Shown: piece by piece, positions 25,532 through 62,106 of the stretch | Position numbering within the stretch: the first letter of the stretch is position 1 | How the letters are laid out: the number at the start of each line of letters is the position of its first letter | Assembly: GCA_010093815.1 (NCBI GenBank) | Contig: ML996570.1 | Source: Pseudovirgaria hyperparasitica | Lineage: Eukaryota | Length of the DNA: 64,000 nucleotides | Strand: one strand, 5' to 3' | The notes under the pieces: model-generated | What the model was told of the DNA's origin: nothing | What the model saw: the letters and a program-made list of their open reading frames with translations, nothing else | The model's database searches: none | Made by a program: the position numbers and the translations under genes

Positions 25532-27957
25532 TTAAGTTCGATTCTATTTTACTCTCTAAGTACTTTACTATAGACTTCGGAGATAATACGTAGAGTAATA
25601 CTAGGGGCGAGCTAGGCTAAGACCTAGATCTAAATATAGGGTTATAAAGCGCTAAAGAGGCGATCTTTAATCTACTATAACGCTAGTAAGCCCTTAAATA
25701 AGAGATTCTTACTATAAGAAACTAAGCCTTCTAGAATTAATCGAGCCCCGCTATAAATAAACTACTAAAGTCTCTACTTAAAAAGATAACCTTAATCCCG
25801 TAAACTAACTAGAAACTATTAGGACCTAGGGACTAGAAACCGCCCTTCTAGGACGGTAAAGTAGCTACCTTCCGAGACTATCTATTATAGTTATATAGCT
25901 TCTATAAGGTATGATCCGCGCTTAAGCTAAAGCTATCCCTAGATTACTATTAGAATACTATCTATAATACTCTACTAGTGTAAGAATAGGGTTATTAGAT
26001 AGTAGTATAGTTAGATAGAATAATAGGGTATATTCTATTATAGAACGAATTACTACCGAACCCTTTCGGTAGGAATCCGAGAGTATATATATAAAGGGAC
26101 GCCGATCTATCTAGTACGTAACTATTTACCGCCCTTTATATTACCTCCTAACCCTATTAGCTAAGGTATATATAGGTTAGATCCTACCTAAGGCTAAGTC
26201 CTAATAATTATCCCTTCCCTCTAGGAAGCTACCCTTAGCGACCTAGATTATTATCTATCTCTATATCTCTATTCTAAGTCTCGTAAGACCTTAGTTATTC
26301 TCTACGCTTCGTCTTAGATATTTACTAATATTTACTAATCTAAGATTTATATAAGCGTTTTTCTAATAAACTAGATTTTATCTATTCTAACTTCTTATAT
26401 AGGTAAGATTATCTAATTAGGCCTAGCGTATCACGTAATATAATTAGGTAAGCCCGGGTACTACCTATATTAAAATCTTTTCTTAGAAATATTCCTTTCT
26501 TTAAAAAACTTCTTAACTCTTTATAGAGTTTTTTAGATTATTAGATATATTACCTAATCCTTATAGATATAGATTTATATAGATTTACTATAATTTAGTA
26601 CGATTTACGTAATTTACTAATTTTCGTATTATCCTTAGCTAGTAATAGTATAATTCGTAATAATCCGTATAAATCGGTAATAATTATAATATGGTTTTCT
26701 AAAATCTTAATACTCTAAAGTAATTAGTACGGAAATAGGCGCCTTTAAATAATCTCTATCTTATATACGTTACCGATATATCGAAAGCTATTAATCTACC
26801 CTAACCTAGGCCGGGCTCTAATAATCTAGCTATATATTATTATAGTTATCGCTTTCCGTCGTATATTACTTACGGTAGTACTAAATCTATAATATATAGT
26901 ACTTATATAACTAAGAAGCGTTATTACTTATAGGTATTTAAGTAAGTTTAAAGAACTTTACGTAGGTTTACTTATATTAGTATAGATTACTACTAGGCCT
27001 CTAGTAACCCCTACTAATAAGGAGCGTAGTACTACTAATTATAACGCCTTAGAGAAGGCTTTCTACGAGCTATATATCTAAGGTAAGGGTTACGTCTAGA
27101 AGTACGATTCTAATAAGATCCGTAAGGATTTATCGGAATCTACTATAGCTATTATTACCGCGATTACTAGGTATTATTATTTTTCTTAAATCGTTATAGA
27201 TTCTTACTAATATATATTAATCTCTATAATTATAAGGATTATAGACGTAGGATAGTAGTCTAATAGGTTATAGGAGGATTCGGGAATATATTTAAAAGGG
27301 TAGTCTACTCTTCTAACGAGGTTGATTTCTAAAGAGTAGGAATTAAGTATATGCGGCCTACTTATATAGTAGTCTCGCTTATTCTAGCTAGCTTAACCTA
27401 GGTCCACCTATCACGGACCGTACTAGACTATAGTAGTCTAGTTAAGTCTATCCTAGTATTAGCCCTAATAATATTCTTCTTCTTCTTATGCTTCGCCCTA
27501 AAGTACTTAGCTATATATAAATCCGTAATTCTATAAGCGTTATATTTATACGCGTATCTAATTAAATCTATATAACGTTATCGATAGTCTTTATATTAGT
27601 AAACTTAAGCTCTAGTTTACTTTTATTTATACACGCACTTATCCCTTACTTTATAGCTACTACCTTAGAGGTAGCTCCGCGGGTTATATAACCGCTATAT
27701 TAACTAAGCTTATATTTAGTTCTCTTATTCTAAATTTTCTTCTCTAGTATATCTACCTTACTCTTAAGGTAAGTTATTAATTTATATACTATCTCCTTTA
27801 GTTTAAATCCGTTCGGGTCTAGAGTAGTCCATTTTTATTAGAGCTAGTTCTATATAATCTATTCGCGTTATTATGGTTACTAATTTAGCTTCTTTAATTA
27901 CCTTTAAGACTAAATAAGTATTCTACTCTTAGATCTCTAGCTAACGTATATATATAG

Positions 27958-29262
27958 ATATCTAATACTAGTTCTATTTCTAAGCCTACCTCCTCCTCTC
28001 GCAAGACTCACTCTAAAGAAATTATCTCTACCCCGGCTATACTAGCTAAAAAATCTACTTATCGTAGTAGTATAAAGGCGCGCTCTAAGTTAGAGAAGAA
28101 GATAGCTAAGGCTACTACTACTATTACTACTAATATAGCCACTAGTCACTCTAATCTAGGTAATTCTAGTACTAGTATTGCGGAAGAGGTGGCTATAAAG
28201 CCTACCTACACCTACTCGCGCCGTCTATCTACTCTACCTCCTTTAGAGGATAAAGAAGATCTCGTCGTAGACGATAATCGAGAGTTTACGCCTTCGCCGC
28301 CTCGCTCTAAATACTATTTCTCTTTTCGGTCTAATATAGACTAACTTAGTTACTCTAGATCCTTTTAGAACCTTAATATTTACTCTAAACCTAGCCCTAG
28401 TAATAATAAGGCCTAGGTCGCCGAAGATACTAAACGTAGTCGCGGTTTACGCTATAGGAAAATAGCGAACTACGGTTTAATATACTTTAAGTATATTAAG
28501 GCTTACGCCACCGGCTCTAAATATCTCTTCCGCTCTAACTCTAGTATTAGCTACTACTCTACTAACTACGATAGGCCTATATATCTAATCTTTAAGCTCC
28601 CTACCCGCTACCGCCGCTATACTATCCTTAGTAAAGTTTATCTTTAGATAAGTCTATTAGGCTATTTTAGTCTAGGGTAATCTAAAGTCGTCTATACTAA
28701 TACATTTTTAGGTTTCTATTTATATATAAGATATATATAACGATCTTCGCGTCCGTGAGACTCTCGGTAGTTCTAGTAGTTATCTAGCTTCTATACGTAG
28801 GGAGTTTAGGGAGCGCTATAAGCTCTTCCTAGAGGTTATTAAAGTATAAGTTTAGAAACCGTTAATTATTATTAACCTTAGCTTATAATTTTTAGTCGCC
28901 GCGAGATTCCTAGCGCTTAGGCTATCTATTCTAGGGAGTTGGTTTTAGCTACTAAGGCCGTAGAAGAGATTCGTACTATTCCTTCCCACCCGCCTTATAC
29001 TACTAACGGGTCTCATAAGAGATCTACTAGTTCTCCTTCTAAGTTACCTTATAAGAGGGTATATATTCTATTCTAGATTATTCTAGACCGCGTTAGCTAA
29101 CTTTAGGTCTAGTCGCTCCGCTCTAGCGCTTAGTTATTATCTTACTAGGCTCTAACTAAGCGCGTAGTTACTCTAGAGGATAAGGTCTCTAACCTCTGTC
29201 GCTCTATTACTTAGTTAGTTCATTCGCTATACTCTAAGAGTAATAATAAGATAGAGGAGTAG
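27958..29262 (+). pseudogene. Antisense spliced accessory gene of C (~380 aa; Ser/Thr/Lys-rich N-terminus, Zn-cluster-like motif, coiled coil)
   Basis: Exons 27958-28647, 28712-28845, 28896-29058 and 29107-29262 total 1143 nt in frame. Branch-site/AG signals present. Donors of introns 1 and 2 read ATAAGT; the intron-1 donor is intact GTAAGT in the D homologue. Confidence 0.75.
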
Positions 29263-29799
29263 CTCTATGGCTCTATTTACTAGGGTTTCTATATAGTGTA
29301 TGTTGGCTCTATCTACCTAGTTTCTATCCGTTTTAGTCCTTTTTAGACCGTTTAGATACCTATCTACTAGTTTTCTAGTAATTTAATTCTTAACTTAATA
29401 ATATTATATACGTTCTTATTTATTCTATAACTATTAAATTTTAGATTCTAATTTCCTTTAAGTTACTTAAGTATAGGTATTATATATAAATTAGTTTATC
29501 TCTCTAAATTATATTAGAGTACCTAAACTAGTGGCCTAGTAGTTATCGGTTTAGATACTCTAACCTTTTATATTATATATCACGAGTTTAATTCCGTAGT
29601 AGAGTACCTTTTTAGTTTCTTAGTCCTATATTCTTCTCGTGTATAATAGTCTATATTAGTCTATTCTAGACTTCTCTATATTATTCTATTATAATATATC
29701 GCGTTGCGTGCCTATACCGGTTATTTATATTTTCTTCGCGTTTAGTAACCGTATATCGCTTGAATTATAGGGCTGCCTTATAGAGTTTTCCTAGTATAC

Positions 29800-32700
29800 G
29801 TTTAGGATTCGTGATTTAATACTTCGTTCTCTATGGTATCCTTCTTCTTTCTACGACGGCCCTAACGGCGCTAGGTTTATAGTAGTAACGTGTTATCCTA
29901 TAACCTCTATTTATATATAGCTATCGCGGTACTTAAGATATATACTATAGGTTCCTAGGTATCCTTATCCTTAGTATAGTTCTTCTAATAGATTTAATAC
30001 TTTTGGATACTATTCTCGTTAAGCCTATGTTTAATAATATAGTCTACTTCGTATACGTCTAGTCTATCTTAGGGTATAATAGAGTATAATTACACGTTCG
30101 TACGTTTATATACGTTAGATCGAAACCTTTTAAGTAATAAGACGTGGAATACGTTATGGACTTTTATATCGTTTCCTAGGTTAAGCTTATAGACTCTTAT
30201 ACCGATATAACGTTTAATTCGGAAGGGACTAGCTATTTTATAATCGAGCTTTTTATTTACTTATAATGTTCGTATATTATAGATATTAAGGAGGACTTTA
30301 TCTCCCTCCTCGTATACTTAATCTTTAACTAATCTATTATAGTACTTTATATATAACTTATTCGCTTACTAGATTATTACGTGATAGTTACGTACGGTTT
30401 TAAAGATTTTAATCGCTAGTTCCTACGCGTAGACGTTAACATCTATTATTTAGTCGAACTAGACCGTGTAAGGTTCGAAACCTATCCTTAGACTACGTTC
30501 TAGGTTCGTCTAGAAGGGCGTAACACCTATTATACTATAACGACTATTATTATACGCGAATTCTACTATACTTAGTAGAGAGGCCTAGTCGTCTTATTCG
30601 AAATTATAGAATGTATAAAGGTAGGCCTCGAGCGTTTGGTTCTATCGCTCTATCTAACCATCTATTTATAGATGGAATACTATTAACATGTTTCTATTTA
30701 TACCAGCCATTTCATAGAATAACGTCTAGAATTTAGACGTGAATATACTCCCTCGGTCCGTAACAATCCTTTTTAGTATACCATGGACCTTAATAATCTT
30801 ATTCTAGAATACTTATACTAGTTCTTTTAATATAATCATCTTCTACATAGGGACATACCTAGATATCTTTATAAGTCTATCCACGATAATAAGAATTAAA
30901 TTATAACTTATTCTAAGTATCTCGCTTAGAGGTAAGTTAACTATAAAATCTATAGTAATATCTTTCTATATAAAGAGGGGGACTAGTAGAGGCTATAAGT
31001 TCCTATATAGCTTATACCTAGGTACCTTTATTCTTTAATAAATCGGATAAGTAGCTATCTATTCTTTAATATACTTAGATATATCTTCCTAAAAATAGTA
31101 CTAACGAATCGAGCTTAGGGTGCGTATATACCCGAAATGTCCTACTAGGTTAGCGTTATAGTATCGGCTAACTATAGTAAATCGTGCGTTACCTATTGGT
31201 ATATAGTACTTTCTATTATAGTAGAGTAAGCCGTCTATAAAGGTCTACTTATAGTCTACTTCGGTCCGTAATAACCTATCTTACTATATTTTACGTAACT
31301 TTAAAACTATTAGGTCTGTCTTTTATAGATCCACGATTAACTAGGCGAGGTCTACTTAATATATACGCTAGGTACCATCGCCCTCCCTAATAGCGCTAAT
31401 AAATGGCTCGCTAGGGACTTCGGTACCGTGTCTTTAGTTACCGGCTTCGGTCTTATAAATTTAATTACCGGTATTAGCGTTAGTATCTCGCTAATTATTG
31501 AATAACTTATTATCTAACCTCGTCCTTAAGAGTTAGGCCTATAGCTACTCTAGGACTCTATAGCTACTATAACTCTAGGCGCCTTCTTTATAGTTAGGTC
31601 TTCTTAATATTCTATTAGCTAGGTTTATACTTCTAGATTAATAGTAGATTATAAAGTAGAAATTTATAAGCTACTTAGCCTATTAAACCTATCGATGATT
31701 TAAAACTATCATGCTTATAAACCCCTTTAAGTTATAGTAATTAGTTAGTAACTTAACGTTATACATAGTACCTTTAAGATAATATCGCCACTACTTAAAC
31801 GACTCTACTATTACTAGTAGCTCTTAGTTATAAATAGTATATCTAGTCTCGACGTCGGCTATCTTACGCGAGAAGAACGTAACTAGATACTATTAGACCT
31901 TTTTAGACTCTATTAGTCTAGGCTAGGAGAGTATATCTAAGATTATAAATTCTAATATATTAGTTTTAACGTGAATAGGTTTAGTTAGGTTAAAGTGCAC
32001 TAGTAATAGGGCGGTTATAAATGCTTCTTTAATCTTCTTAAAGGATGTTCTTTCGACCTTAGTTAATTTAATAGGTTATAATTTAATATTATACTATTTC
32101 TATCTACCACGGACCGTAATAGACGAGTCGGTAGTAGTAGTATACGTATTAAGTGGTGCGGCTAAACGGAAGAAGTGTTTAATAAATTTTCGGTAGTAGT
32201 TAGTAAAGCTAATAAAGACACGTATATGTTAAATAGATTTTAGTTTAGGCTAGTCTATAATAGTAGTAACTCTATCTCTCTCTATAGTTATACCTTAATT
32301 AGTAATAACGAAGCTAAGAAAGTTAATATAGTCCTAATGGAACTCGTATTTAGATAGCTTAATATATAGCTTATACTTTTCTAGCCTATCTAGGACTATA
32401 CGTACGTGCTAGATATACTCCTCCTCGTTATCTAAGAAGATAAGGATATTATCTAGGTACATAATATATATTATATCGAGTAGGCCTACTAGCGCGTTAT
32501 TAATATATGCTTAGAAGGTACCTAGCGCGTTAGTTAGTCTAAAAGGGACTATAGTATACTTAAAGTATCTATAACGGGTTCTAAAAGCCGTTTTCCATTC
32601 ATCGCCTTCCTTAATACGAAGGCGATAGTAGATGTTACGTAGATTAAGCTTAGTAAAGATCTTTACGCGTCCTAGTCTATTAATAGACTTAGAGATAAGA

Positions 32701-34960
32701 GGTAGTAGGTAACGATTCTTTTATATAATATTATTTAGGCTACGGTAGTCGATATATAGACGGAGGCTCCTATTCTTCTTCTTTATAAAGAGGATTAGAG
32801 CTCCGGCTAGAGATATACTAGGCCTAATCTATTCTTGCGTAAGGTTCTTTTCGATATATTCTTAAAGGGCTTATAACTTAGGTTCTAAAAGAGAGTAGAT
32901 AGGTCTATATAGAGGTTACTAGCTATCTTCGAGATTAATAGTAAGGTTAGTAGATTAGTATTAAGGTAGTTTAGAGGAATCGATCGCTAACGCGATATAT
33001 TAGTATATTTTATACTAATATAGTAGGTTTTCGTCCACTTTAATACTAAGCTCGCTATTTTACGTAAGTAAGAGTACGTAGATAGTAGAGATCGCCTTCT
33101 TATAATCTTTCTAGAATTATTTATCGTCGATAAGCTATACTAGTTCCTATTAAGGTAGGTTTATGCGCTAGCTAGCTATCTTCTTAAGGAAGTCTAGTTT
33201 TAGATTATATTTCTTAAGCTATAGTATACCTAGAATTATATCGAAGGGACTATCTACCACGATAAAGGTTAAGTAGTAGAGTTTCTATTTCCCTCCGCTA
33301 TCCTAGATGCTATATTTAATAGTATAGGTACCGTATGACTTAATAGGACCGTTAATACTATAGAACATAGTATCTATTAGAGCTTAGATATCGGCGTTAA
33401 GTTCTCGTGCTCGTTAGGTTAATATAACGTTAGTAGCCGACCTACTATTAAGTATTATAGTCTAATATTATCCACGAGGGACCTTAATAGATCTAGTCTA
33501 TAGTTCGATATACTATTTAGCGGATTACCCCTCTATTATAGTCGCGTCTATAAGTCGCGAGGGTTTCTTATAGACTATTAGTTTTTTATATTCTATGCTA
33601 GGTAGTTAGGCGCGATGTATTCTAGCTACTAGTACTTATAGTATATAACTAGTTAGTTAGTTATATTAGCACTCGGTAGCTTCCCTAAACGGTACTTAGG
33701 TACTATATAGTCTATTCTACTATAGGTATAGTAAGTAACTTTAGGTCGTTTATACAAGTCAGTCCTTATATCTTAATATATCAATTAGTAGAGAGATCCA
33801 CAATACAATCCGCGTGGTTTTAAATTTAAGGCGTGGTAGTAGCCTTATAACGTCCCGCGAGATCTATTACTAAATCGGTTTTAGTTAGACGATTTTACGT
33901 TAGATTAGATTATTAGAGATAGTTATATACTAGCGCGGCGTTAATTATTTATTATATACTAGTATCGCTCCGCGAGGTTTATAAGAGCTTAGAGGTCTAT
34001 AGGGATTATTATTATAAGGTTAAGACGGTCCTTTATATTTAGGGCGAGAGACCGTTTAAAGTCGTCGTACTATCAAATTATATAATCTTCTTTAGCTTCT
34101 CTCTAGAGGGGCCGAAGGTATTTAAGGAGTTATAACGGTAACTAATTATCTCGTTATCGAGTCTTAAAGATATGGCCCTAGACCTAGTCGCGTTATTTAG
34201 CCCTATCGCTAAAATATTAGAGAAGAAATTCGGTGAACGTGTCCTAGTTATAGGTATTCTTAGAATGTTTAATTCGGTATACTATCTAACGTTCTAAAGG
34301 CGTTAGGTTAAGGTAGTTCTAGGCGAATCTAATTTTATTACTATCGTTTATAAATAGATGGAAGAATCGGCTATATTAGTAAGCCTATACGTGGAAACTC
34401 TTTCTACTTTTACTATTAAAGTAAGATAGTTTCTTAGGTCGGGGTAATTAGGATAGTAGTAGACTAGGATAGATTATTTTAGTTAGTATAGGTCTATATA
34501 AATATAGATTAGTCGTTACTAGAACTAAAGCGCGTAATATAGCTTTAAGTCTCGTAGTACGTTCTCGAGCTTTATTAAGTTCGCGTAGTTATTACTTAAG
34601 TTAAATCTATTATTATCTCTCTTCGTGTAGTCTAGTATATACGTTATTATAAGGTGTGGTTAACGTTAGGCGATTCTAATAGATTAACTTATTAACGTTA
34701 ATAAGGTCTAGTCTTATATTAAGGTTAGGTCTAGTATAGTTCGAACTAGACTAAGATAGAGTATAATAGACTCTATCCTTATATTCTATAATATCTTCTA
34801 TAGTTATACGGAATATCGTGCGAGTTATTAGTACGATAGCCTATAAGATATAGTTATTAGTAGGGGTAGTTATAGGTAGACTATTCTTCTCGTTTAGGTT
34901 AGGAGAAGGTCTACTATAAGAGGCGGTACCACGAGTGTTATAACGAGTAGTTAGAGCTAT
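29800..34960 (-). pseudogene. gag-pol of element C (gag CCHC knuckle, protease, RT, RNase H, integrase, chromodomain), RIP-disrupted
   Basis: Minus-strand [27 protein letters not shown] (~32575-32660) and YLDNILIF (~32440-32460); colinear with the pol of D. Ends approximate. Confidence 0.9.
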
Positions 34961-35890
34961 TTCTATAAACTACCGTCGTGCTATATAAAGAGGAATTAAA
35001 ATATAAGGATTATAGACGTAGAATAGTAGTCTAATAGGTTATAGGAGGATTCGGGAATATATTTAAAAGGGTAGTCTACTCTCCTAATAAGATTAATTCC
35101 TAAAGAGTAGGAATTAAGTGTATACGGCCTACTTATATAGTAGTCTCGCTTATTCTAGCTAGCTTAACCTAGGTCCACCTGTCACGGACCGTACTAGACC
35201 ATAGTAGTCTAGTTAAGTCTATCCTAGTATTAGCCCTAATAATAATAGTGCTAAAATCTCTACTACTTCGGACTTCTTTCTATATACTAGCGATATTAAA
35301 ATTCCTAGAAAAGGTTCTAGTAAAAAGGCTAAGGTTCCTTCCTTACGCGTGCTAAAGAGCTATAAATTTAGAGAAGATAGCTCTAATCTAGAAGTTTCTA
35401 TACTAAAGGTATATAGTTCTATACCGATCGTTAAATCTTTTTACTAATTTATATAATTCTTAGCGTGCCCGCGCCGGTCCGTCTCTCTCTATTCTAGGTT
35501 CTACTACTCTATAGGTTTCTATAGAGGAGTTTATAGCTATAAGGCGCGCTATATAGAATTTATAGCGTCGGAACGAAAGGCTAGAGACTTATATTATAAA
35601 GCTCTATACTATACTAAATAAGAACTAGCAAAAGGAATTAGATGTAACTATCGCGGTAATTAGTACTTCTACTCCTACTCCGACTTAATTAGTTTAGATC
35701 TATACTAATTAGTACTAATATATCTCTTTTATCTAGTATTTTTAGTTTTTTAGTTTTAATTTTAAAGTAATCTTACTTCTTCTAGATAGATTAGTACGAG
35801 TTTATAAAGATCTATATAGATCTTTATATTTTCTTTTAGCTTTCTTAATTTTATCTTTCTTTAATAATAACTTCTTTAATCTCTTTAGTA

Positions 35891-41100: not shown

Positions 41101-41704
41101 AACCTTCTCGGTTCTAGTTAGACTATCTTAACTATAGTACTATATAGGGAGTAATTCGAATATAAGAATAGGGTTATTAGATAGTAGTATAGTTAGATAG
41201 AATAATAGGGTGTATTCTATTATAGAATGAATTACTACCGAACCCTTTCGGTAGAAATCTAAGAGTATATATATAAAGGGACGCCGATCTATCTAGTACA
41301 TAACTATTTACCGCCCTTCACGTTACCTCCTAACTCTATTAGCTAAGATACGTATAGATTGGGTCCTATCTAAGGCTAAGTCCTAACAACTAGCGCGTAA
41401 GAGAAACTAAATATAATACTTCTAGAAAAGAGGAGACTCTATAAAAGGTAAGGACCCTAAAGCCTTCTTTATATAACTCGAGTATATATTTATAGATAGT
41501 AATAAGAAGGCTAAGGCCTTAGAAAAGCTTTCGTTACTTAAATATATAAATAGCTAACCTTAGTATAAATACTAACTTAAATTTAATAGGCTTCTACTAA
41601 GTACCGGTAGAGATAACTAGAAAGATAGCGTAAAAATTAGCTATCTCTAAAATACCTTCTTAAACCCCGCTTATATATATATAGCCTCTATACTAAGGAT
41701 TATA

Positions 41705-46990: not shown

Positions 46991-48172
46991 TATACTAAGG
47001 ATTATAGACTACTATAGCTTCGCGGAAGAGGTCGAGAGAATTATAATAAACTTAGAAGATACTAAGTAGTTTAAGGTAGCTAATAAGAAGTAGAAAAAGA
47101 ATATAGTTACTATAATAAAAAGCACGGTAGCTATAAGGTTATATAAGTATTATACTATAGCTAAAAAGAATAAGAATAGAGATACTATTATAGGCCCCGT
47201 ATATATAAGCGGAGACTAGAAGAAAGGATTTAGATTCCGCCGTAAGACGGAGGAGATACTAAAGGTAAAGTAGATTAACTAAGTAGAAAGGAATAGACGC
47301 TAGAAAGAAGGACTCTACTTCCGTTATAGGGTATCGGGATACTAGATTAAAGGCTACCCGTATACTAATCCCTCCTTAACCTCTAAAAGAATTATAAAGA
47401 TTAATTAAGTTAAAATTATATCTCTATTAGAGATTAAAGATAATCTTATAGATTCTAGTAATAAGTACTTAGGAAATATATAACTTTCTCTTAAAGTTAA
47501 GAGTAGAGAGTAGAGAACGTACTAGTAGATAGATAGGCCGAGTTCTAAAGTATAATAGATAGAAACCTTATATATACGGATATAGTTCTCTAAAAAGCTA
47601 TTAGGACTTTTACGCTTATTAACGAAGGCTACTAGTACTACGCTATAATTTAAGAAGACCTAATAGAAGGTCTAGAACTCCCCTATATAAATTATAGAAA
47701 ATATATAATTAAGGGAGTAACGGACACTATAAACGACTCCGAAATTCGTAGAGTCGTCGCGTTTCGTATAGAGATAGATAATTATAGATAAGATATCTAC
47801 GCTTATATAGTACCTAACTTAGCCTTCCCGCTTATTCTTAGAAATCCTTAGAAAGTATATAATAAGGTATAGACCGCGCCTAATAAGCGATAGTGTTAGG
47901 ACGGGAACTATAATAGACCTATATAGACCATTCTAATCCATGCAGCCACGTAGTGGCTAGAGCTAGGTTAAGTCAGCTAAGTTAAGCGAGGTTACTATAT
48001 AAGTAGACCGCATAAACCGATTTCTACTCGTTAGGAGTTAACCTCGTATAAGAGTAAGATTACTCTATAAATACATTTCTATATCTCTCTATAAACTATT
48101 AGACTACTATCCTACGTCTTCACTCTTTATATTTTAACTCCTCTCTATATAGCACGACGGTAGCTTATAGAG

Positions 48173-51100
48173 ATAGCTCCTACTACGCGCTATAATACCC
48201 GTGGTACTACCTTACACGAGAGACTCTCTCTAAATCTAAACGAAGAGAATAGTCTCCCTACGACCACCTCCACCGATAAGTATACTCTATAGACTATTAT
48301 ACTAATAACTAGTATAGTATTCTATATAACCGTGGAAGATTACCTAGATAATAAGGAAGGAGTCTATTATACTCCATCGCGGTCTAGTTTATACTATACT
48401 AGACCCATTCTTACTATAAGACCAGACCCTATTAACGTTAATAAATTAATTCGTTAGAACCGACTAATATTAACCACGCCTTACGACGACGTATATACCA
48501 AGCTATACATAGAGAGGTAGCGTTAGACTTAGCTTAAGTAGTAACTTTGCGAACTCGACGAAGCGTAAGAACGAACCGCTAGACTCGAAGCCGTACTACG
48601 CGCTTTAGTACTAGTAGTAACTAACCTATACTAATATAGACTAACTTAAGCCGAAATAGTCTAACTAAGTCTATTACTATCCCAGTTGCCTCGGCCTAAG
48701 AAACCACCTTACTTTAATAGTAAAACCAGGAGGAGCTTTTATAAATAGGCTTACTAGTATAGCCGATTCTTCCATCTATTCACGAACGATAGTAATAAGA
48801 TTAGATTCGTATAGAACTACCTAGACCTAACGCCATCTAAACGTTAGATAGTATATCGAATTAAATACCCTAAGGATGTGTATAACTAGGACACGTTTAC
48901 TAAATTCCTTCTTTAATACTTCGGCAATAGAGCTAAGTAACGCGAATAGGCTTAGAGCCATATCTTTAAGACTTAATAGTAAGAGAGATAATCCCCGTTA
49001 TAACTTCTCGAATACCTCTAACCTCTTTAGAGAGAAGCTAAGGAAGATCGTATAGTTTAATAATGTGACGACTTTAAAAGGTCTCTTAACCCGAGCGTAA
49101 AGGAACGCATTAACCTTATAACGTCTATCCCTACCGACCTTTAGGTACTCGCGAATCTTATAGAACGACATTAGCGTATAATAAATAACTAATATCGTAT
49201 AGGCGTATAACTATCCCTATTAATCTAATCTAATACGAAATCGTCTAAAGAGGACCGGTTTAGTAATAGATCGCGCGGAACACCTCGTAGACGCTACTAC
49301 TCTACGAACTCGAGAAGACGAGGCCCGTACCACGGATCTTTCTACTAGTCGATATATTAAGACGTGAGAAACGACTCGTATAAACGACCTAAAGTTACCT
49401 ACTATACCTATGGTAGAATAGGCTATATAGTACCCGAGTGCCGCTTAGGGAAACCACCGAATACTAATATAGATACTAAGTTAGTTATATACTATAAGTG
49501 CTAGTAGCTAGAATATATCGCGCCTAACTACCCGGTATATAATATAAAAAACTAACTATCTATAAGGAACCCTCGTAACTCGTAGATATAACTAAAATAG
49601 AGGGATAACTAGCCAACTAGTATATCGAACTATAGGCTAGGCCTATCGAGATCCCTCGTAGATAATATTAGACTATAATACTCGATAGCGGTTTAGCTAC
49701 TAACGTTATATCGACTTAACGAGTACGAGAACTTAACGTCGATATTTAAGTACTAATAGGTACTATCTTCTATAGTATCGATGGTCCTATTAAATCGTAG
49801 AGTATCTATACTATTAAATACGGTATCTAGGACAGCGGGGGGAAGTGGAAACCCTACTACTTAACCTTTATCGTGGTAGATAGTCCCTTTAATATGATCC
49901 TCGGTATACTATAGCTTAAAAAATATAACCCGAAACTAGACTTTATCTAGAAAACAGCTGGCTGGCGTATATACCTACTATAATGGAATCTAGTATAGCT
50001 AGTTAACGACGAATAATTCTAGAAGGACTACGAAAAGGTAATCTCCGCTATCTACGTCCTCTTACTTACTTAAAATAGAGAGCTTAGTATTAAAGTGGAC
50101 GAAAACCTACTATATTAGTATAAAATATACTAATATATCGCGTTAGTAATCGACTCGTCCGAATTACCTTAATACCAATCTACTAACCTTACTATTAACC
50201 TCGAAGACGGTTAATAACCCCTACACGGACCTATCTACCCTCTATTAGAACCCGAGCTATAGGTCCTCCGAGAATATATCGAAAAGAACCTTATATAAGG
50301 ATAGATTAGGCCTAGTATATCCCTAGCCGGAGCTCTAATCCTCTTTATAAAGAAGAAGGATAGGAGTCTCTATCTATGTATCGACTACCGTAGCCTAAAT
50401 AATATTACGCGAAAGAATCGTTATCTACTACCTCTTATCTCCGAGTCTATTAATAGACTAGAGCGCGTAAAGATCTTTACTAAGCTCGATCTATACGACG
50501 TCTACTACCGCCTATATATTAAGAAGGGCGATAAGTAGAAAACGGCGTTTAGAACCCGTTATAGATACTTCGAGTATATAGTAGTCCCTTTTAGACTAAC
50601 TAACGCGCTAGGAACCTTCTAAGCGTATATTAATAACGCGCTAGTAGGCCTACTCGACATAACGTGCATTATATACCTCGATAACATCCTTATCTTCTCT
50701 AATAATAAAGAAGAATACATCTAGTACGTACACGTAGTTCTAGATAGGCTAGAAAAACATAAGCTATATATTAAGCTATCTAAATGCGAGTTCCACTAGG
50801 ACCACGTTAACTTCCTTAGCTTCGTTATTACTAATTAAGGTATAACCATAGAAAGGGATAGAGTTACTACTATCGTGGACTAGCCTAAACTAAAATCGGT
50901 TTAAGATATACGTGTCTTTATTAGATTCGCTAATTACTACCGAAAATTTATTAAGTATTTCTCCTAGCTAGTAGCACCGCTTAACGCGCGTACTACTACT
51001 ATAGATTCGTCTATTACGGTCCGCGGTGGATAGAAATAGTATAATATTAAATCGTAGTCTATAGAATTATTAGAAGGCGAAAGGGCCTCCTTTAAGAAAA

Positions 51101-53320
51101 TCAAAGAGGCATTTATAACTACCCTATTACTAGTGCACTTTAACCTAACTAAACCTATCCGCGTTAAAACTAACGCGTTAGGATTTATAATCTTAGGTAT
51201 TCTCTTCTAGCCTAGACCAACTAAGTCTAAAAAGGTCTAATAGTATCTAGTTGCGTTCTTCTTACGTAAAATGGTCGATGTTAAGACTAGATATACTATC
51301 TATAACTAAGAGCTACTAGTAATAGTAGAGTCATTTAAATAGTAGCGATATTATCTTAAAGGTGCCATGTATAACATCGAGTTACTAACTAATTACTATA
51401 ACTTAAAGGGGTTTATAAGTACGACGGTTTTAAACCGTTAATAGATCTAATAGGCTAAGTAGCTTACGAACTTTCACTTTATAATCTACTATCGACCTAG
51501 AAGTATAAACCTAGCTAATAGAATATTAAGAAGACCTAACTATAAAGAAGGCGCCTAGGATTATAGTAGCCATAGGGTTCTAGAGTAGCTATAGGCCTAA
51601 CTCTTAAGGACGAGGTTAGATTTTAAGTTATTAGGTAATTAGCGAGATACTAACGTTAATACTAGTAATCGAATCTCTAAGACCGAAGCCGGTAACTAAA
51701 GACGCGGTACTAAAGTCCCTAGTAGGCCGTTTATTAGCGCTGTCGGGAAGGGCGATAATACCCGGTATAAATATCTAATTAACCTCGCCTAGTTAATCGT
51801 GGATCTATAGAAGATAGACCTAATAGTTTTAAAGTTACATAAAATATAGTAAGATAGGTTATTACGGACTAAAGTAGACTATAAGTAGACCTTCGTGGAC
51901 GGCTTACTTTACTATAATAGAAAGTACTATATACCGACGGGTAACGCGCGATTTAATATAGTTAGCCGATACTATAACGCTAACCTAGTAGGACACTTTA
52001 GGTATGTACGTACCCTAAGCTTAATTCGTTAGTACTATTTTTAGAAAGATATACCTAAGTACATCAAAGAATAGATAGCTACTTATCCGATTTATTAAAG
52101 AACGAAGGCCCCTAGGCATAAGCCATATAGGAATTTATAGCCTCTTTTAGCCCCCCTCTTTATATAGGAAGATGTTACTATAGACTTTATAGTTAACTTA
52201 CCTCTAAGCGAGATACTTAGAATAAGTTATAATTCTATTCTTATTATCGTGGATAGACTTATAAAGATATCTAGGTATATCCTAGTATAGAAGATGATTA
52301 TATCTAAAGAACTAGCGTAGGTGTTCTAGAACGAGATTATTAAGGTCTATAGTATACTAAAAAGGATCGTTATAGACCGAGGAAGTACCTTCACGTCTAA
52401 ATTCTAGACGTTATTCTATGAAATAGTAAGTATAAATAGAAATATATCTATAGCATTTTATCCTTAGACGGATAGCTAGACAGAGCGATAGAACTAGACG
52501 CTTAAGGCCTACCTACGCGTATTCTATAATTTCGAGTAGAATAACTAGGCCTCCCTACTAAGTATAGTAGAGTTCATATATAATAATAGTCGTTATAGTA
52601 TAATAGGTATTATACCTTTCTAGACGAACCTCGGACGTAGTCTAAGGATAGGTTTTAAGTCTTAGACGGTCTAATTTAATCGAATAATAGACGTGAACGT
52701 CCACGGTTAGGAATTAGCGATTAAAATCTTCGAAACCGTACGTAACTATCGCGCTATAATCTAATAAGTAAACGACTTGTATACGAAGTACTATAATAGG
52801 TTAGCTAAGGATTAGACGTATAAGGAGGGCGATAAGGTCCTTCTTAATATCCGTAATATATGAATATCGCGAGTAAATAAGAAGCTTAATTATAAAATGG
52901 CTAGTTCCTTCTAAATCAAACGTTATATCGGTATAAGAGTCTACGAGCTCGACTTAGGAAGCGATATAAGAATCTATAATATATTCTACGTCTTACTACT
53001 CGAAAGATTTCGACCTAACGTATATGGCCGCATGAACGTATAGTTATACTCTATTATACCCTAAGATAGACTAGACGTATTCGAAGTAGACTATATTATC
53101 GAATATAGAATTAATAAAGATAGTATTTAGAAATATAGAATCTATTAGAAGGACTATACTAAGGACGAGGACACCTAGGAACTAGTAGTATATATCTTAA
53201 GTTCTATAATAGCTGCGTATAAGCAAAAGATATAGAATAGCGTATTATTAATATAAGTATAGCGACGTCGCGGTCGTCGTAAAAAGAAGAAGGATACCGT
53301 AGAGAACGAAGTGCTAAACT
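48173..53320 (+). pseudogene. gag-pol of element D, RIP-disrupted
   Basis: Gag knuckle ~49490-49530; protease ILDSG (49680); [15 protein letters not shown] and IYLDNILIFS (~50670); RNase H TNALGF and *ELLVIV; integrase FYP*TDS*TER; chromodomain FEVDYIIEYR...*KDYTKDEDT*EL (~53080-53190). Ends approximate. Confidence 0.92.
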
Positions 53321-53704
53321 AGGAAATCTAGACGCGCACTAGGAAAACTCTATATAGTAGCCCTATAATTTAAGCGTTGCACGGTTACCAGACGCGAAGA
53401 AAGCGTAAATAACCATTTTAGAAACGCGACGCGACACACTATAATAGAATAACATAGAAGAGTCTAGAATAGACTAACATGGACCATTACACACGAGAAA
53501 AACATAGGACCAAGAACCTAAAAAAAGGAAAATTAGAATGTAGAAACCGATAGTTATAAGCTAAGCGAGCGCATATATAATATCGTTAAGTTAAGAATTA
53601 AATTACTAGAAACTAGCCGACGGGTATCTAAACGGTCTAAAAAGGACTAAAATGGATAAAAGCTAGGTAAATAGAGCCGGCGCGTACCACCTATAGTAGA
53701 TCTA

Positions 53705-53822
53705 GAATATATAGAGCCAGGCATAGAGCTAATATATAGAGCTAGGCACAGAGCCAACACATAGAGCTAGACCATAGAGCCAATATATAGAGCTAAACCT
53801 ATAGAGCTAGAACTATAGAGCT
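53705..53822 (+). repeat. ~13-bp degenerate tandem repeat (TAGAGCYAxxxxA) x ~9 in the 3' region of D
   Basis: Directly visible; the equivalent position in C (~29263-29320) has only ~3 degenerate units. Confidence 0.8.
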
Positions 53823-55132
53823 ACTCCTCCATCTTATTATCCGTTCTAACCTCTAGTATAGTTCTCTCTAACCGTACGACATAGCGGCGGAGGACGACGA
53901 CCTTAGCCTCTAGAGTAATAACCCGATCCGTTAGAGCCTAGAGGGAAGAGTCTTAAGCGCTAGAGCGTAGCGACTAGGTCTAAAGTTAGCTAATATAATC
54001 TAGAATAATCTAGAAGGGAATATATACCCTCTTACGAGGCGACTTAGAGGGAGAAATAATAGATCTCTTATAAGATCCGTTAGTAGCGTAAGACGGATAG
54101 GGGGGGATAGAGCGAATCCTCTCTACGGCCTCTATAGCTAGAATAGACTCCCTAGAATAGGTAGCCTAGGCGCTAGAGATCTTGCGGCGGCTAGAAAAAT
54201 TAATAGGTATTAAAAATAATTAACGTGCTTATAACTTATACTTTAATAACCTCTAGGAAGAGCTTATAGCGCTCCCTAAACTCCCTCTATATAGTAGATA
54301 GGCGGCTATAAGGACCCCCGAGGGTCTCATAGACGCGAAGGTTATTATATATATCTTATATACGCATAGGAATCTAAGAATATATTAGCGTGGACTACTT
54401 TAGATTATACTAGATTAAGATAGCCCATTAGACTTACCTATAGATAAGTCTTACTAGTCATGGTATAGCGGCGGTAGCGGGTAGATAGAGTAAAGATAGG
54501 GCGTATAGGCCCGTCGTGGTTAGTAGAGTAGTAGCTAATACTAGAGTTAGAGTGAAAGAGATATTTAGAGCCGGCCGCATGGCCCTTAATATACTCATAG
54601 TATATTAAACCGTAGTTCGCCGTTTTCCTATGGCGTAAACCGTAACTACGTTTAGTATCCTTAGTGACCTAGGCCTTATTATTAGTAGGCTAGGGTTTAG
54701 AGTAAATATTAAGGTCCTAAAAGAACCTAGAGTAACTAAATCGGTCTATATTAGACCGGAAGAAAGAGCGGCAAGGCGGCGGCGTGGGTAAGCGCGAGGG
54801 CTTGCGATTATTATCTATAACGAGATCTTCTTTATCCTCTAGAGAAGGTAGAGTAGACGGCGTACGCTTTAGAGCGAGAGGAGAACCTATAACTACTTTA
54901 TCTATAAGTTTAGTACTAGGATTACCTAGATTAGAGCGACTAGTAGCTACATTAGTAGTAGAGGCAGTGTAGTAGTAGCCCTAGCTACTCTCTTCTCCGA
55001 CTTAGAGCGCGCCTTCGTACTACTATAATAGGTAGACTTCTTAGCCGGCGTAGCCGGGGAGGAGGCGATACCTTTAGAGCGAGTCTTATGAGAGGAGGAG
55101 GTAGACTTAGAGATAGGACTAGTATTAGATAT
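53821..55132 (-). pseudogene. Antisense spliced accessory gene of D (orthologue of the C gene)
   Basis: Colinear with 27958-29262. Intron-1 donor GTAAGT intact at 54437. Last exon has the same length and frame (...ALTDRVITLEAKVVVLRRYVVRLERT...KMEE*). Confidence 0.75.
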
Positions 55133-55854
55133 CTATATATATACGTTAGCTAGAGATCTAAGAAAGGAATATTTATCTACCCTTAACGGCGATTAACGAA
55201 GCTAAATTAGTAACCGTAATAACGCGAATGGGTTATATAGGACCGGTTCTAACAAGAATGGACCACTATAGACCCTTCTAAACCTAAACTAGGGAAGATA
55301 GTATATGAATTAACGACTTACCTTAAGAGCGAGGTGGATATACTAGAGAATAAAATTAAAGGCAAGCGAAGCTAAATATATACTCGACTAAAGTAGTAAT
55401 TACGTATCCTAGGTAGTAGCCATAAAGTAAGGGATAAGCGCGTACATGAACTAGTAAAAGTAAACTAGAATCTCGAGTTCACCTATATTAAGGATAGTTA
55501 TAACGTTATAGGAACTTAGTTATAGATATATAGGTACACGATAGATTATAGAGACTTAGGATTATATATACTTAAGTACTTTAGGGCGAAGCATAAAAAG
55601 AAGAAGGATATTATTAGGACGGGAACTATAATAGATCTATATGGACTATTCTAATCCATGTAGCCACGTAGTGGCCAGAGCTGGGTTAAGTTAGCTAAGT
55701 TAAGCGAGGTTACTATATAAGTAGACCGCATAAACCGATTCCTACTCGTTAGGAGTCAACCTCGTATGAGAGTAAGATTACTCTATAAATACATTCCTAT
55801 GTCTCTCTATAAACTGTTAGACTACTATCCCACGTCTTTACTCTTTATAGATAG

Positions 55855-58800
55855 TACTACTATAGCTAAGTAAAGCGATAGATAAACGAAGGTCTTAACT
55901 ACTATAAGCTAGGGACCGCTAAAGAATAGGCGGACCCTATAAAAGAATATAAGAACTCTAAAGGGGCCCTTATAGTAAACACGGTATCCGCGGAGAATAT
56001 CTATAAGACGCTAGAGAAGAAGAAAGAGCTTTTACTAGAATAGATACGGAAGATACTACCCCTATAACTCTAGAATATAGCTCTACTATTTTCTAAAAGG
56101 GAAGCGGATAAACTCGCGCCGTACTAGCTAGGTATTAATTATAAAATTAAGATATATAAGAAAGCGGACGGGATACTAATAGACTTACTATAGAGGCGGC
56201 TATTTAGTATAGTAAAGGACGAGCTCCTTATACTAGTAAAACTTCTAAGAGACCTTCTAGTAAAAGGGCTAATTTAGTATACTATATTAGAAGCTATAGT
56301 CTCTATATTATTTATAAGAAAGCCTAGTAGAGAACTCCGGTTCTATTATAACTACTATACCTTAAATACTATTACTAAGCCCGACTAGTACCCCTTACTA
56401 CTAATACTAGAGACCCTCCGAAATCTAACGGATACTAAATAGTTAACTAAGGTAGACGTTATCGCCGCCTTCTACTAGATCTATATAGCCTCTAGTTATA
56501 AATATAAAATAGTATTTAGAACTTAGCTAGGGTTATTCGAATAGATAGTATACCTATTTAGGTTATTAGAGGCTCTAGTAACCTTCTAACGGTATATTAA
56601 CTTCTTACTATAAGAATAGCTAGATAACTTTACTTTAGTCTATATAGATAATATAATTATCTACTTAAATAGGTTAAAGGAAGACTATTTTAGTAAAGTA
56701 TATATTATTCTTTAGAAGCTCTAGGACGGAGGCCTCTACCTAGACCCTAGGAAAAGTAAGTTTACTTATAAAAAGATTAAGTACCTTAGGTTTATTATAT
56801 ATACTAATAGAAAAGGCGTAGGCCCTAATCTAGAGAAGCTAGAAGTAGTAAAGAACTAGTAGAAGCTAAATACCTAGAAGGAAGTACGACGGTTCCTTAG
56901 GTTCTATAACTACTACTAGATATTTATTATAAACTATTCTAAGCTAGCCGGGCCTCTTACGGTACTTACTAGTAAGAATACTCTATTCTCCTAGAGAAAG
57001 AATAAAGAAGAGTTATTCTAGGCCCTAAAGGAGAAGTTCTTAGAGGCCCTAGTTATAGTATACTAGGACCCTTATTAGAAGATATTCCTTAAGACGGACT
57101 ATAGCGGGCTCACGCTTAGAGAAGTACTACTTTAGGAAAATAAAAGAACTCTTAGACCCGTTAGATTTTTCTTACGGAAGCTAAATAAAGTAGAGATTAA
57201 CTATAATATCTATAATAAGGAGATACTCGCTATAATCTTCTACTTAAAGTTCTAGAACCCCAAGTTAAAAGTATATAGTCCCTTTACTATATAGATAGAT
57301 TATAAGAATCTTAAATACTTTATAACGAAGTATTATCTATTAGAATACTAAATATAGTAGTATAAAACCTTATCTAGGTACTAGTTCTTCTTAGTTTACT
57401 AACTAGAATCTAAAATAGTTATCTCTAACGCTCTATTAAGACGGGAATAAGATATACTTAGAGTAGACGATAAAGAGTCTAGGTTCCGTAGATTTCTAGA
57501 CCCTAAGAATATAAAAGATTAGCCGGTCCCTAAGGTAAGACTATCGGCGGCCTATACTACTAACTTACTATTTAAGAATATATTACTAGGGACTAAGCCT
57601 ACCTACGAAGAGCCGGCTTCCCCGGGACCTTTCTAGAACTACTCTCTAAATAATCTATAGACTATAATAGTAGAAAAGGACTTAATATACTAAACTATAC
57701 TCCGTATAGTAATAGAAGGAGTATAGTTATTTCTAAGCGAGGTAAAGCTAAAAGTCTAAGTAGTAGATTATAGTATTAGCTTAGAGGGCTACCTTAACTA
57801 CTATAGAAAATTATAGATACTAGGCGTAAAGGTAACTATAGAAGCCAAGTATAAAGTACTAGAGCCTAGCGATTTAGAAGGGGACGTCCTTTGGACTAAG
57901 CTTATCTAGTCTATATATAACTCGCCGCTCTACGGCTACCTAGACTAAGATTCTACTACTTCTATACTAGCACGAAGCTTCTACTAGCTACTATAGGTAA
58001 GATATATAAGATAGTTTCTATGAAATTATAACTACTATAGGCGGAATAAGGTATAGCGGGAATAAAAACACGGACTTCTAAAGTCTCTCCTAGTCTCTAA
58101 TCATTTCTTCTAGAAGATCTTAATAGACTTTCTTACTAATCTACCCGGCTTAGAAGGGAACTACTATTTATAGATTATTAAAGACCGCCTAAGTAAGACT
58201 ATAGTATTATAAGCGATATCTACTATAAAGGTAGAGAAATACGCTAAGGCGTTTATAGATTACTAGGTAAGGTACTACGGCATGCCCTTAGCAATAATAA
58301 GCGATTAAGGAATAAACTAGACTAGCTATTTCTAGAAGACCTTTTATAGTCTTACTAGAGTAACCTAAAGACTAAGCTCTATATACTATCCTTAAATAGA
58401 TAGAGGCCTAGAGAGAATAAACTAGAAGGTATAGAGCTATCTATAAAACTTTATTAATTAGGAATAGTCTAATTAGAAAACCTAGCTTCTAACTATATAA
58501 CTAGTACTAAACGCGCGCTACTAAGTAGAGCTAGAAATAAGCCTATTCTTCGCTATCTATAGATATAATCTATTATCCCCCGTGCCTCTACGGATAGAAG
58601 CTAACTCTAGTTTCTCGCTCTCTACTAAATAAAGAGTAGAAACCTTTATAAAAAAGATAAAGAATATTACTAAGCTATATTAAGTAAATATAGTAGAGGC
58701 CGCCTAAAAGTAAGAGAAGTCCACGAATAGAAAGTAAACTCTAGTACTAGTATACTATATAGAAGATAAAGTATAGCTCGATTTAAGAAACTATATAATA

Positions 58801-59237
58801 AGTTAACTAAAGAAGAACCTAGACTTAAAGCACGCGAAATATACTATAGATAAAGTTCTATTACTAGTATCCGTTAGACTAAGGGGGCTTCCTAGTAATA
58901 TCTACCCGGTATTCTATATAGATCTACTTAGACTAGCTAGCAAAGACCCTCTACCTAGATAGAAGACTAATAATAAATAACCGGACCCTATACTTATTAA
59001 GATATATAAAGAGTAGTAAGTTAAAGAGATATTATATACTAGGAATAAAGGGCGAGGATAGAGAAGAGAAGTCCTAGTAAAATAGGCTAGATACCACGAC
59101 CTAATATAGAAACCCTTAGTAAATCTAATAGATACCGCCGTATTAGATAAGTTCGAATAGAAGTTCGGACCTGCTAAGATAAATAACGGCCTACTAGAGT
59201 AGTAGACTATAAAGAAAAAGAAGATATCCGCCTAGTA
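55855..59237 (+). pseudogene. pol of element A (RT, RNase H, integrase, chromodomain), RIP-disrupted
   Basis: LTKVDVIAAFY*I (~56445), VYIDNIIIY (= YxDD, ~56640), YNIYNKEILAII (RNase H), integrase YYP*IDRGLER, chromodomain E**VKEIL...VLVK*ARY...*KPL (~59010-59125). Confidence 0.9.
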
Positions 59238-59369
59238 ACCTATAGAATACACGGATAAAGAAGAGGAAGACTATATAGTCTTAAGAGAGAATAGAAAAGA
59301 AATTCATTCTATAGAAAAAAAAAAAGAAAAAAAAGAGAGAGAACTAAACGCTAAAGGAAAAGGCCTAGA

Positions 59370-60650
59370 GGCCGGCATATTCTAATAGGTCTATAGGTTA
59401 GCCTAATAGGGCCCTAATACTAATACTAGAGGAATACTACCCGTACTATAATAGGAGGTTAGTAAGAGAATTTAACTAGAGTCTAGGATTAAACTTACGT
59501 TTAACCCTACTAGGCTATTATATTAGTTATCTAAGTAGTTACCTAGAAGGCGATAGTACTAAAAGCGTGGTTAGTAATTATTCGTCTAGGGAGTCCGAAT
59601 AGTCTTATACGGGAAGTAGACTAGCTACTTATAAAGGCTATAAAGCCTTTATAGCTTTTAGGACCTAGGCGAGGTCCTTATAGGCGTCTAGTCTAAACTA
59701 ACTATTAGCCGGGCGTTAAAACACGGAACTAGAAGAGAAAAGAACTTATACCCCGGTATTAGTCGACTAAGTCTATACTATATAAGTAATATAAGTAATC
59801 TCCGGCCTAAAATACTAAGTTAGTAGTTATTATAATAAGAGTTCCTGAGTTAGCTTATAGGTTCTAGTAATTTACCCTTCTTAGGGTATAACGAGTATAG
59901 AAGCGACTTTAGTTTAACTAAGTAAATTAGTAGAGCCTAACGTGAATAACACGGAGTCTAATACTTACTACTTAGTTAGCGTAGTCTTTACTAGCTAGGG
60001 CATAGCCCTAGTAGTAGATAATATTATTTATCTATAGAACCCGAGCATTAGTAACTAGACTCTAACTAGACGAGAAGAGAGAATCTAATCTTACGATAGA
60101 GAAGGACGAGGTTATTAAGGTCTAGAAAAATAGAAGGGAAACTATACCTTTATACTTAGGACCCTTAAAATTATAAATAGACCTTCGTGAATAGAATATC
60201 GTAAATAGAATATCTATAATATATAAATATCTATTTACGTACGACTCTAAAAATATATAAATAACCCTTATTCACGTACTCTTAATGGACGAGTAAATGG
60301 TCCCGGCGTATACGATAATAGGCACCCTATTAACTAAGAAGTACCTGGTAAGGGATAGATTAATATAAAAATAGTTCTTAATCGAAGAACTAAACCCTTT
60401 CTTCTATATACTTAATAATAGGTCTAAGGCCTAAGAAGATATAGGGCTAAGGCCTAAGGAGATATAGAGCTAAATTAAAGTAGACGCACGGATGGTAAGT
60501 CTAGTAGAATTTTACTAGACTTACTACGTGAATATATATATTAAGTCTAAGTAGCCTAGCTTATAGGGAGTACTATACGCGGCGGTAATAGAGGCTACTA
60601 CCATCCTATAATAACGATTATTACTACTAGAGTAATAATAGACACTACTA
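59370..60650 (-). pseudogene. Antisense multi-intron accessory gene of element A (product unresolved)
   Basis: Up to 8 short (51-67 nt) minus-strand intron-like units: 60470-60524, 60345-60411, 60214-60279, 60032-60094, 59918-59968, 59807-59858, 59693-59749, 59446-59498. Four retain GTAAG donors; most show CTAAY branch sites and YAG acceptors. Gene ends approximate. Confidence 0.65.
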
Positions 60651-61043
60651 TATTAGGAAGCTATTCTTAGATAGACGGCTATCTACCTAGTACTAGGGGG
60701 ATATAGATATAAAAGGAGCTACTAATATAGAAATTAAACTATCTTCTATAAATAATCTATAATAGATTTAATAGATAGATTCTTTTAATAGAAGATATAT
60801 ACGCCACGATCTAATAGCGGGCGTTAAGTCTAGTCGCTAAGGCCTATATTAGGGGGCGTCGTATATAATAATAAGTATTACCACGAGCTAATAGTAATTA
60901 CTACTATAATAACTAGGTATAGAAGAGCGGCTTTATTAAGGGTTTTCTAGGAAGCCGGTAGAAATTAGCCGGATAATACTTACTTATAAGTGGTCCGTAG
61001 CTAGGGTAAGATATAGTAATAAATAAGCGGAGGGAGGGAATAA

Positions 61044-61258
61044 TATTAAGGGTAGACCCTAGGTATACTTAACGCTAGTATACTACGCCTATACTACTAC
61101 TCTCTCCTCGCCTAATAGAGCTAAGCGAGCCCCTTTTTAATAGCGTACTCCGTCCCTTATCTTAAGGAAGCTAAGTAGACTCTAGCTTCCTCCCTTATCG
61201 AACTTACTATATTCTATAAATACTCTTACGTCTATATATACATCGTATTCCCGTAATA
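61044..61258 (+). repeat. 3' LTR of element A
   Basis: Colinear with 25317-25531; preceded by PPT, followed by TSD. Confidence 0.93.
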
Positions 61259-61559
61259 CTATCTATATATAAAGACTTATTCTAAGAATCTATCTAGAGA
61301 TTAGCTATTTTAGACTATAAAGATCTTAAATCTAGAGGGCGTATAACGCCGCTATTATAATTTTTAGTACTATAGAGGCTAGTATATTATAAAAGGTTCT
61401 AATTATATCTAGAGTATAGATAGATACTATAAGCTTAGCTTATATAGTATTAAGATCTATACCTATATAGATATATATTTAAGATATATTATCTAGGCCT
61501 ATATTAGTATCTTATCTACTATAGTAGTTAGTTATCTCTTTTAGTTTCTAGAAACTTTA

Positions 61560-62106
61560 TATAAGAATAGAGTTATTAGATAGTAGTATAGTTAGATAGA
61601 ATAATAGGGTATATTCTATTCTAGAACAAATTACTACCGAACCCTTTTAGTAGAAATCCGAGAGTATATATATAAAGGGACGCCGATCTATCTAGCACGT
61701 AACTATTTACCGCCCTTTACGTTACCTCCTAACCCTATTAGCTAAGGTATATATAGATTAGGTCCTACCTAAGGCTAAGTCCTAATAATTATCCCTTCTC
61801 TCTAGGAAGCTACCCTTAGTAACCTAGATTATTATCTATCTCTATATCTCTATTCTAAGTCTCGTAAGACCTTAGTTATTCTCTACGCTTCGTCTTAGAT
61901 ATTTACTAATATTTACTAATCTAAGATTTATATAAGCGTTTTTCTAATAAACTAGATTTTATCTATTCTAACTTCTTATATAGGTAAGATTATCTAATTA
62001 GGCCTAGCGTATCACGTAATATAATTAGGTAAGCCCGGGTACTACCTATATTAAAATCTTTTCTTAGAAATATTCCTTTCTTTAAAAAACTTCTTAACTC
62101 TTTATA
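61560..62106 (-). mobile_element. Element B copy 2: 3' LTR (61560-61787) + PPT + start of 3' region, interrupted by a LINE
   Basis: Matches 25979-26525; the remainder presumably lies beyond the LINE, outside the window. Confidence 0.92.

Follow-up and report, generated by a model that had tools for sequence, protein, structure and literature searches.

Two sister chromodomain retrotransposons

The window analysed here, a single stretch of 64,000 nucleotides, is AT-rich beyond ~24.5 kb and there carries two related LTR retrotransposons in opposite orientation. Element D (47889..55849, plus strand) was identified by its LTR pair, by domains on a C-family copy and by RIP indices as a RIP-inactivated chromodomain Ty3/Gypsy element; element C (27228..35244, minus strand) belongs to its sister family. 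The D LTRs (47889-48131 and 55607-55849, plus strand) are 93% alike over 243 nt. Between them, on the plus strand, lie a gag-like region (approximately 48200..49450), whose frame was taken from an excess of third-position transversions and which has no Pfam match, and pol (approximately 49520..53330), comprising a protease region, RT, RNase H, integrase and chromodomain. C and D are 81% alike over gag-pol and 76-78% alike over the 3' part. The C-family copy matched the Pfam domains RVT_1, RNase H, Integrase_H2C2, rve, SH3_Tf2-1 and Chromo, with the rve and SH3 matches below curated cut-offs and Chromo (PF00385) at 31.2 bits against a cut-off of 25.1. This domain set, in which the chromodomain lies downstream of the integrase, indicates that C and D are chromodomain Ty3/Gypsy elements, and the two LTRs and the order RT-RNase H-integrase that characterize Ty3/Gypsy elements are present. 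RIP was heavy (TpA/ApT 1.8-2.0; (CA+TG)/(AC+GT) 0.17-0.24).

Other features of the window were also recorded. The D copy lacks ~150 nt near 53524 relative to other D copies and to C. More distant Gypsy-like elements (~60% in pieces of pol) occupy 35245-41392 and 55850-62106, and neither matched the exon profiles of the gene described below. Another repeat, of higher GC content, is present as two inverted copies that are 93% alike (45058-47008 and 62092-64000).

An intron-bearing gene antisense to gag-pol

Antisense to pol, in the interval from the chromo-integrase to the 3' LTR, lies a gene of four exons and three introns (~383 codons), which we modelled from an alignment of natural copies (30 D and 30 C). 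In D it extends from start to stop over 53821-55132 on the minus strand, the same limits as in the first-pass annotation. Exon 1 (54438..55132, 232 codons in the D family) encodes a basic N-terminus, a Ser/Thr/Pro linker and a Cys-bearing region. It is followed on the same strand by intron 1 (54374..54437, 64 nt, phase 0), exon 2 (54240..54373, 134 nt, with an LFLEVIK block at its end), intron 2 (54191..54239, 49 nt in D and 50 in C, phase 2), exon 3 (54028..54190, 163 nt), intron 3 (53980..54027, 48 nt, phase 0) and exon 4 (53821..53979, 159 nt), which contains a heptad repeat forming a putative coiled coil, ends in TAG and exists as three alleles in the genome. The gene of element C occupies 27958..29262 on the plus strand (exons 27958-28647, 28712-28845, 28896-29058 and 29107-29262). 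Exons total 1152 nt in D and 1143 nt in C, and the frame agrees at all 1143 shared columns; two exon indels distinguish the families, of 6 and 3 nt and both in frame, which is weak evidence given a chance of 1 in 9.

Splice signals in the 60 copies are canonical, with GTAAGT, GTGAGT or GTATAT donors, GCTAAC-like branch sites and YAG acceptors, and nearly all variants are of the RIP type. Stops in the gene frame number 12.3 per copy in D and 10.8 in C; the other five frames have 17.9-75.2. Frame-breaking indels are each confined to 1-4 of 96 copies; a private one-base deletion near 54969 is carried by the window's D copy and by no other of the 30 D copies. Of the 96 copies, 22 begin with ATG and the others with ATA, and all 96 end in TAG. 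This TAG could itself be a product of RIP, since three internal stops are fixed as well; a 25-nt tandem array that lies just behind the stop codon in D-family copies (53706..53823), and that C does not have as an array, varies in length among copies and suggests that coding ends at the TAG. At the other end, a 189-nt intron (55133..55321, minus strand; GCTAAC-type branch, TAG acceptor and, in 57 of 60 copies, a GTAAGT donor) directly abuts the start codon. It is either a 5' UTR intron or follows an unmapped upstream exon, so the 5' end of the model is provisional. By eye, a possible 21-nt exon precedes it at ~55342-55322 (minus strand), and the coding start may be further upstream. A hidden intron within the Cys-bearing region was considered and rejected by eye: its sole acceptor is C-specific, and it would shift the frame.

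The region gave 45 DNA matches in the genome with the D query and 43 with the C query, of which 40 candidates were scored for each, and in a protein-level search all 127 scored candidates were close matches, with no weaker host paralogue seen. Whole elements were present around the fetched matches. The copies were located by the antisense-gene region itself, and the 127 therefore do not count elements that lack the gene. We are highly confident that this is a real gene. Its splice signals are conserved, and on our reading its transcript would have come from the side of the 3' LTR and been spliced on the antisense strand.

The first-pass annotation had described the C and D copies as sharing their exon structure and splice positions, and these are indeed common to both families in the 60 copies. 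It had also given their last exons the same length, which they do not have (159 nt in D and 156 nt in C, one codon apart). The heptad peptides that it quoted are present, and at seven heptad core positions the second base is T in 95-96 of 96 copies, with no transversion at codon positions 1 or 2; an eighth quoted position is not kept, being S, L or P in 8, 19 and 1 C copies. The LFLEVIK block reported as identical lies inside an identical run of 54 nt. The window copies share 11 identical runs of at least 18 nt, however, including one of 46 nt that is mostly intron, and the block alone is therefore weak evidence of constraint.

Constraint on the encoded protein

RIP yields only transitions, and we therefore counted purine/pyrimidine differences, which are RIP-proof. 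The comparison used 29 D and 28 C copies for the antisense gene and up to 21 copies per family, some of them partial, for gag-pol; three mosaic copies, one of D (L017) and two of C (L057 and L058), were dropped from the family counts. A site was taken as four-fold degenerate where a natural copy of each family shows a four-fold codon. As the first-pass annotation had noted, many differences between C and D are ones that RIP cannot cause: about 75 transversions are fixed over the 1143 shared coding sites. By codon position they number 20/19/35 (P=0.011), giving dN 0.055, dS 0.100 and omega 0.55 (95% CI 0.31-1.06; within-gene Fisher P=0.057), whereas the shifted frames give omega of 1.3 and 1.8. 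Positions 1 and 2 are less changed than four-fold sites across the element (39/758 versus 75/842, P=0.0035) and less changed than the LTR (P=0.003), but not significantly less than four intron cores (P=0.09-0.10).

A larger set of 96 copies, which leaves out 19 loci with partial matches only, gave shared transversions of 23/22/44 by position (P=0.0012; against four-fold sites, P=0.001). Transversions confined to single copies served as a control and were distributed 13/14/20 (9/10/13 after removal of two divergent copies), which in this set is not distinguishable from the shared class (P=0.47), so that the control gave no additional support.

Together, these results support protein-level constraint while the elements were active, and we regard purifying selection on the product as quite likely. 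The constraint is moderate, because the omega interval extends to 1.06 and the intron comparison gave P=0.10. A dN/dS near 1 with frame-breaking indels, or divergence like that of introns and UTRs, had been named beforehand as outcomes that would tell against the proposed constraint. The estimate falls below 1 and frame-breaking indels are rare, but the interval includes 1; likewise, change at positions 1 and 2 is below that of the LTR but not significantly below that of the introns. The earlier proposal that the gene was functional in active elements nevertheless agrees with the codon-position pattern, with the comparison to four-fold sites, with the lowest stop density of the six frames and with an exon-4 allele described below.

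Where the gene changes faster than pol

The gene had been called more divergent than RT and faster evolving than pol. The first point is borne out by a total transversion divergence of 0.070 against 0.013 for RT. The second applies to replacement sites only: dN is 0.0004 for RT (dS 0.071), 0.009 for the whole of pol (dS 0.077, omega 0.11) and 0.030 for gag (dS 0.165, omega 0.18), and positions 1 and 2 of the antisense gene are more changed than those of RT (39/758 versus 0/446, P=2e-8), pol (P=6e-12) and gag (P=0.028), whereas its four-fold sites are no more divergent than those of RT (P=0.64), pol (P=0.42) or gag (P=0.14). Among the three coding regions gag has the highest four-fold-site divergence, a hint of a mosaic history.

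Most change sits in the low-complexity linker and at heptad positions outside the core. Per-site change at positions 1 and 2 is highest in exon 4 (0.120) and in the linker (0.108), which spans codons 61-125 and is 34% Ser/Thr/Pro. In the other parts of the gene it is 0.018-0.033, and the Cys-bearing region, at 0.029, is conserved. Omega is 1.19 for the linker (CI 0.34-32) and 0.36 for exon 4; no segment has an omega significantly above 1, in a comparison of only two families that has low power. The transversions are clustered (23 close pairs versus 9.3 expected), and isolated ones are distributed 10/10/20 by codon position. Realignment of one linker cluster with a -3/+3 indel pair halved its transversions from 12 to 6, so the linker dN is probably overstated. 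In exon 4, four-fold divergence is raised relative to the remainder of the gene (6/23 versus 11/167, P=0.008), a difference that we describe as five-fold and that is better explained by a segment that is older or was exchanged than by positive selection. Together with the spread of a chimeric gene, described below, this pattern is more in keeping with relaxed constraint on a modular protein than with conflict with the host.

Exon-4 alleles and exchange between families

A third exon-4 allele was found in three copies (L119, L120 and L132), on genes that are otherwise C-like or mosaic. Compared with 27 C copies it differs at 1/2/11 sites by codon position (P=0.0007; four-fold comparison, P=0.008), and it keeps the heptad core at seven of seven positions, although a number of its changes at codon position 3 alter the amino acid. 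Two further copies (L117 and L126) carry this allele with a deletion.

Five copies are recombinants of a common structure: their LTRs and gag come from C, their pol is mostly that of D, and their antisense gene is a chimera, C-like at first, then D-like over ~54459-54056, then C-like again. One of the five is cut short and one is variable in pol. The gene mosaic itself is carried by six copies (L105-L109 and L136), and two other, single mosaics occur in the genome. Because the recombinant was amplified, C and D must have been co-active and the chimeric gene spread with it; these copies show that the pol of one family worked with the LTR and gag of the other.

Features of the predicted protein

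The N-terminus is basic (21% Lys/Arg). The Cys-bearing region (~codons 172-232; 54438..54620, minus strand) contains six codons, 178, 181, 201, 202, 220 and 230, that encode only Cys or Tyr, with Cys in 6, 11, 2, 2, 7 and 8 of 96 copies, and two, 191 and 223, that encode Tyr in all 96. The zinc-finger cysteines of the integrase are Tyr in 35 of 35 copies, which indicates that RIP hides cysteines in these elements. In fungal dimeric DNA-binding proteins a Cys cluster flanked by basic residues is combined with a heptad that stands apart from it, and the basic N-terminus, Cys sites and C-terminal heptad of this product appear to resemble a dimeric zinc-cluster DNA-binding protein.

The likeness to Zn(II)2Cys6 (Gal4-type) factors lies in the Cys-rich region, basic flank and coiled coil. 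Their domain (PF00172) has the spacing C-x2-C-x6-C-x(5-12)-C-x2-C-x(6-8)-C, and the six Cys/Tyr sites depart from it. The second half of the region would fit C-x2-C-x6-C if codon 223 was once Cys; the first half has x2/x9 in place of x2/x6, a CC pair lies within the 28-residue spacer, and the heptad is more than 100 codons downstream. Pfam, including PF00172, gave no match in sets of 37 and 12 members beyond sub-threshold single matches, in a search that RIP-driven Cys-to-Tyr change weakens. DUF3716 (PF12511), a Cys-rich fungal domain, had six profile matches in the genome and none at the 127 places of the gene.

Wider searches found no close intact relative. Word-based protein searches at near and longer lengths returned none among 4599 and 2067 candidates, and a profile search of 1.84 billion representatives returned none at E<=0.001. 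No homologue was found in viral contigs or at 15 pol-relative loci of a viral collection, all of them distant. A first metagenome scan with an integrase query found no relatives; a second, built on pol relatives from databases, kept 79 loci of 608 matches, all distant (the best 25 listed are 33-43% identical to the C/D integrase), and gave no exon-profile match in them. The search with exons 2-4 covered the fetched loci and the window. Heavy RIP blunts such searches, and these blanks therefore do not show absence. The predicted structure was uninformative (pLDDT 50).

Relationship to known antisense genes

Genes that lie antisense in the stretch from pol to the 3' LTR have been reviewed (PMC7264820), and the available text of that review lists Boty of Botrytis and Sclerotinia, with function unknown. 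The Botrytis gene, brtn (2011, Virology 417:248), is cited in the accessible parts of PMC7264820, PMC8365987 and PMC4227169; the last two place it in chromodomain BcGypsy1/Boty elements, and a supplementary figure of PMC8365987 covers brtn and other extra ORFs. The C/D gene belongs to this already described brtn-like kind: it runs antisense to gag-pol in a fungal chromodomain Gypsy element, behind pol and ahead of the 3' LTR, and, as brtn is described in most copies, it is recurrent (127 matches) and not a one-off capture. The likeness is one of position and orientation, and the C and D copies differ from those of the brtn comparison in being RIP-mutated.

Position and orientation are likewise shared with the plant aORFs-3R (maize Grande gene23, rice RIRE2, Silene Retand and PvRetro13 ORF2), which belong to plant lineages. 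According to the portions of PMC7264820 available, some plant products have a reported nuclear localization or SMC-like domain, and the plant proteins are conserved about as well as other element proteins, whereas the C/D gene is far less constrained than pol. Like family D with its 25-nt array behind the stop, plant elements with antisense ORFs carry tandem repeats, Retand being the example given.

Interpretation

The reading that we favor, at slightly better than even probability, is that two sister chromoviral Gypsy families encoded an accessory gene whose product would be a nuclear, dimerizing Cys-cluster regulator of the element. In the active era the gene would have been transcribed antisense, spliced and translated, and RIP later inactivated it. 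The protein may have been a nuclear dimer, with the basic N-terminus serving nuclear import or DNA contact, the Cys cluster binding zinc and DNA, and the exon-4 coiled coil joining the subunits; it might then have regulated the transcription or life cycle of its own element in trans. For DNA binding and nuclear regulation taken by themselves, which we read from sequence features, we put the chances at about even.

A functional accessory protein of another sort, such as one that binds RNA, serves the particle or targets integration and has its Cys sites in a different metal-binding fold, is rather unlikely. Basic, low-complexity N-termini occur in RNA-binding proteins too, the Cys spacing is non-canonical, and the zinc-cluster and DUF3716 profiles found no match; against this, the combination of Cys cluster, basic flank and separate heptad is the fungal dimeric DNA-binding layout. 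Some plant antisense products are moreover nuclear, as the available text of PMC7264820 reports. Somewhat less probable is the suggestion of the first-pass annotation that the gene was a host-conflict or family-specificity factor under diversifying selection, for example a silencing suppressor or a protein whose coiled coil paired only within its own family. The excess of replacement change over RT and gag, the existence of three exon-4 alleles and the raised four-fold divergence of exon 4 would agree with it. However, no segment has an omega significantly above 1 and a C/D chimera was amplified, which leaves host conflict unsupported. The third exon-4 allele differs mostly at third positions, the changes are clustered and the fast, low-complexity linker is of uncertain alignment, gag is fast too, the Cys region is conserved, and five of the six copies with a chimeric gene have common breakpoints along the element.

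We consider it improbable that the elements had captured a host gene, which then decayed as a passenger, or that the region was retained for its antisense RNA, the codon pattern being residual or partly due to chance. The short, host-like introns would suit such an origin, as would the omega interval that spans 1, the intron comparison and the indistinct single-copy control. Every one of the 127 candidates, though, was a close match with no weaker host paralogue, both family-separating exon indels are in frame (itself a weak point) while frame-breakers are rare, and the exon-4 allele pair gives an independent signal of constraint. The gene anatomy and the moderate purifying selection are the parts of the favored reading that the data show. 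A more far-reaching possibility, which we hold to be unlikely, is that these chromoviruses carried a non-canonical zinc-cluster regulator of their own with the coiled-coil exon as a set of exchangeable alleles; recombination between the co-active families would then have rewired which copies' proteins paired and so controlled cross-family activation or repression, in the manner of a retroviral accessory regulator.

What antisense extra genes do in LTR retrotransposons is, according to the available text of PMC7264820, an open question, and since the copies here are dead the present analysis narrows it without answering it. In the literature, so far as its text was available, we found no selection estimate for a fungal antisense gene of the brtn-like kind. 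These data add a RIP-proof measure of protein-level selection on such a gene, together with a map of its conserved parts, and they document exons that were exchanged between families that kept spreading.
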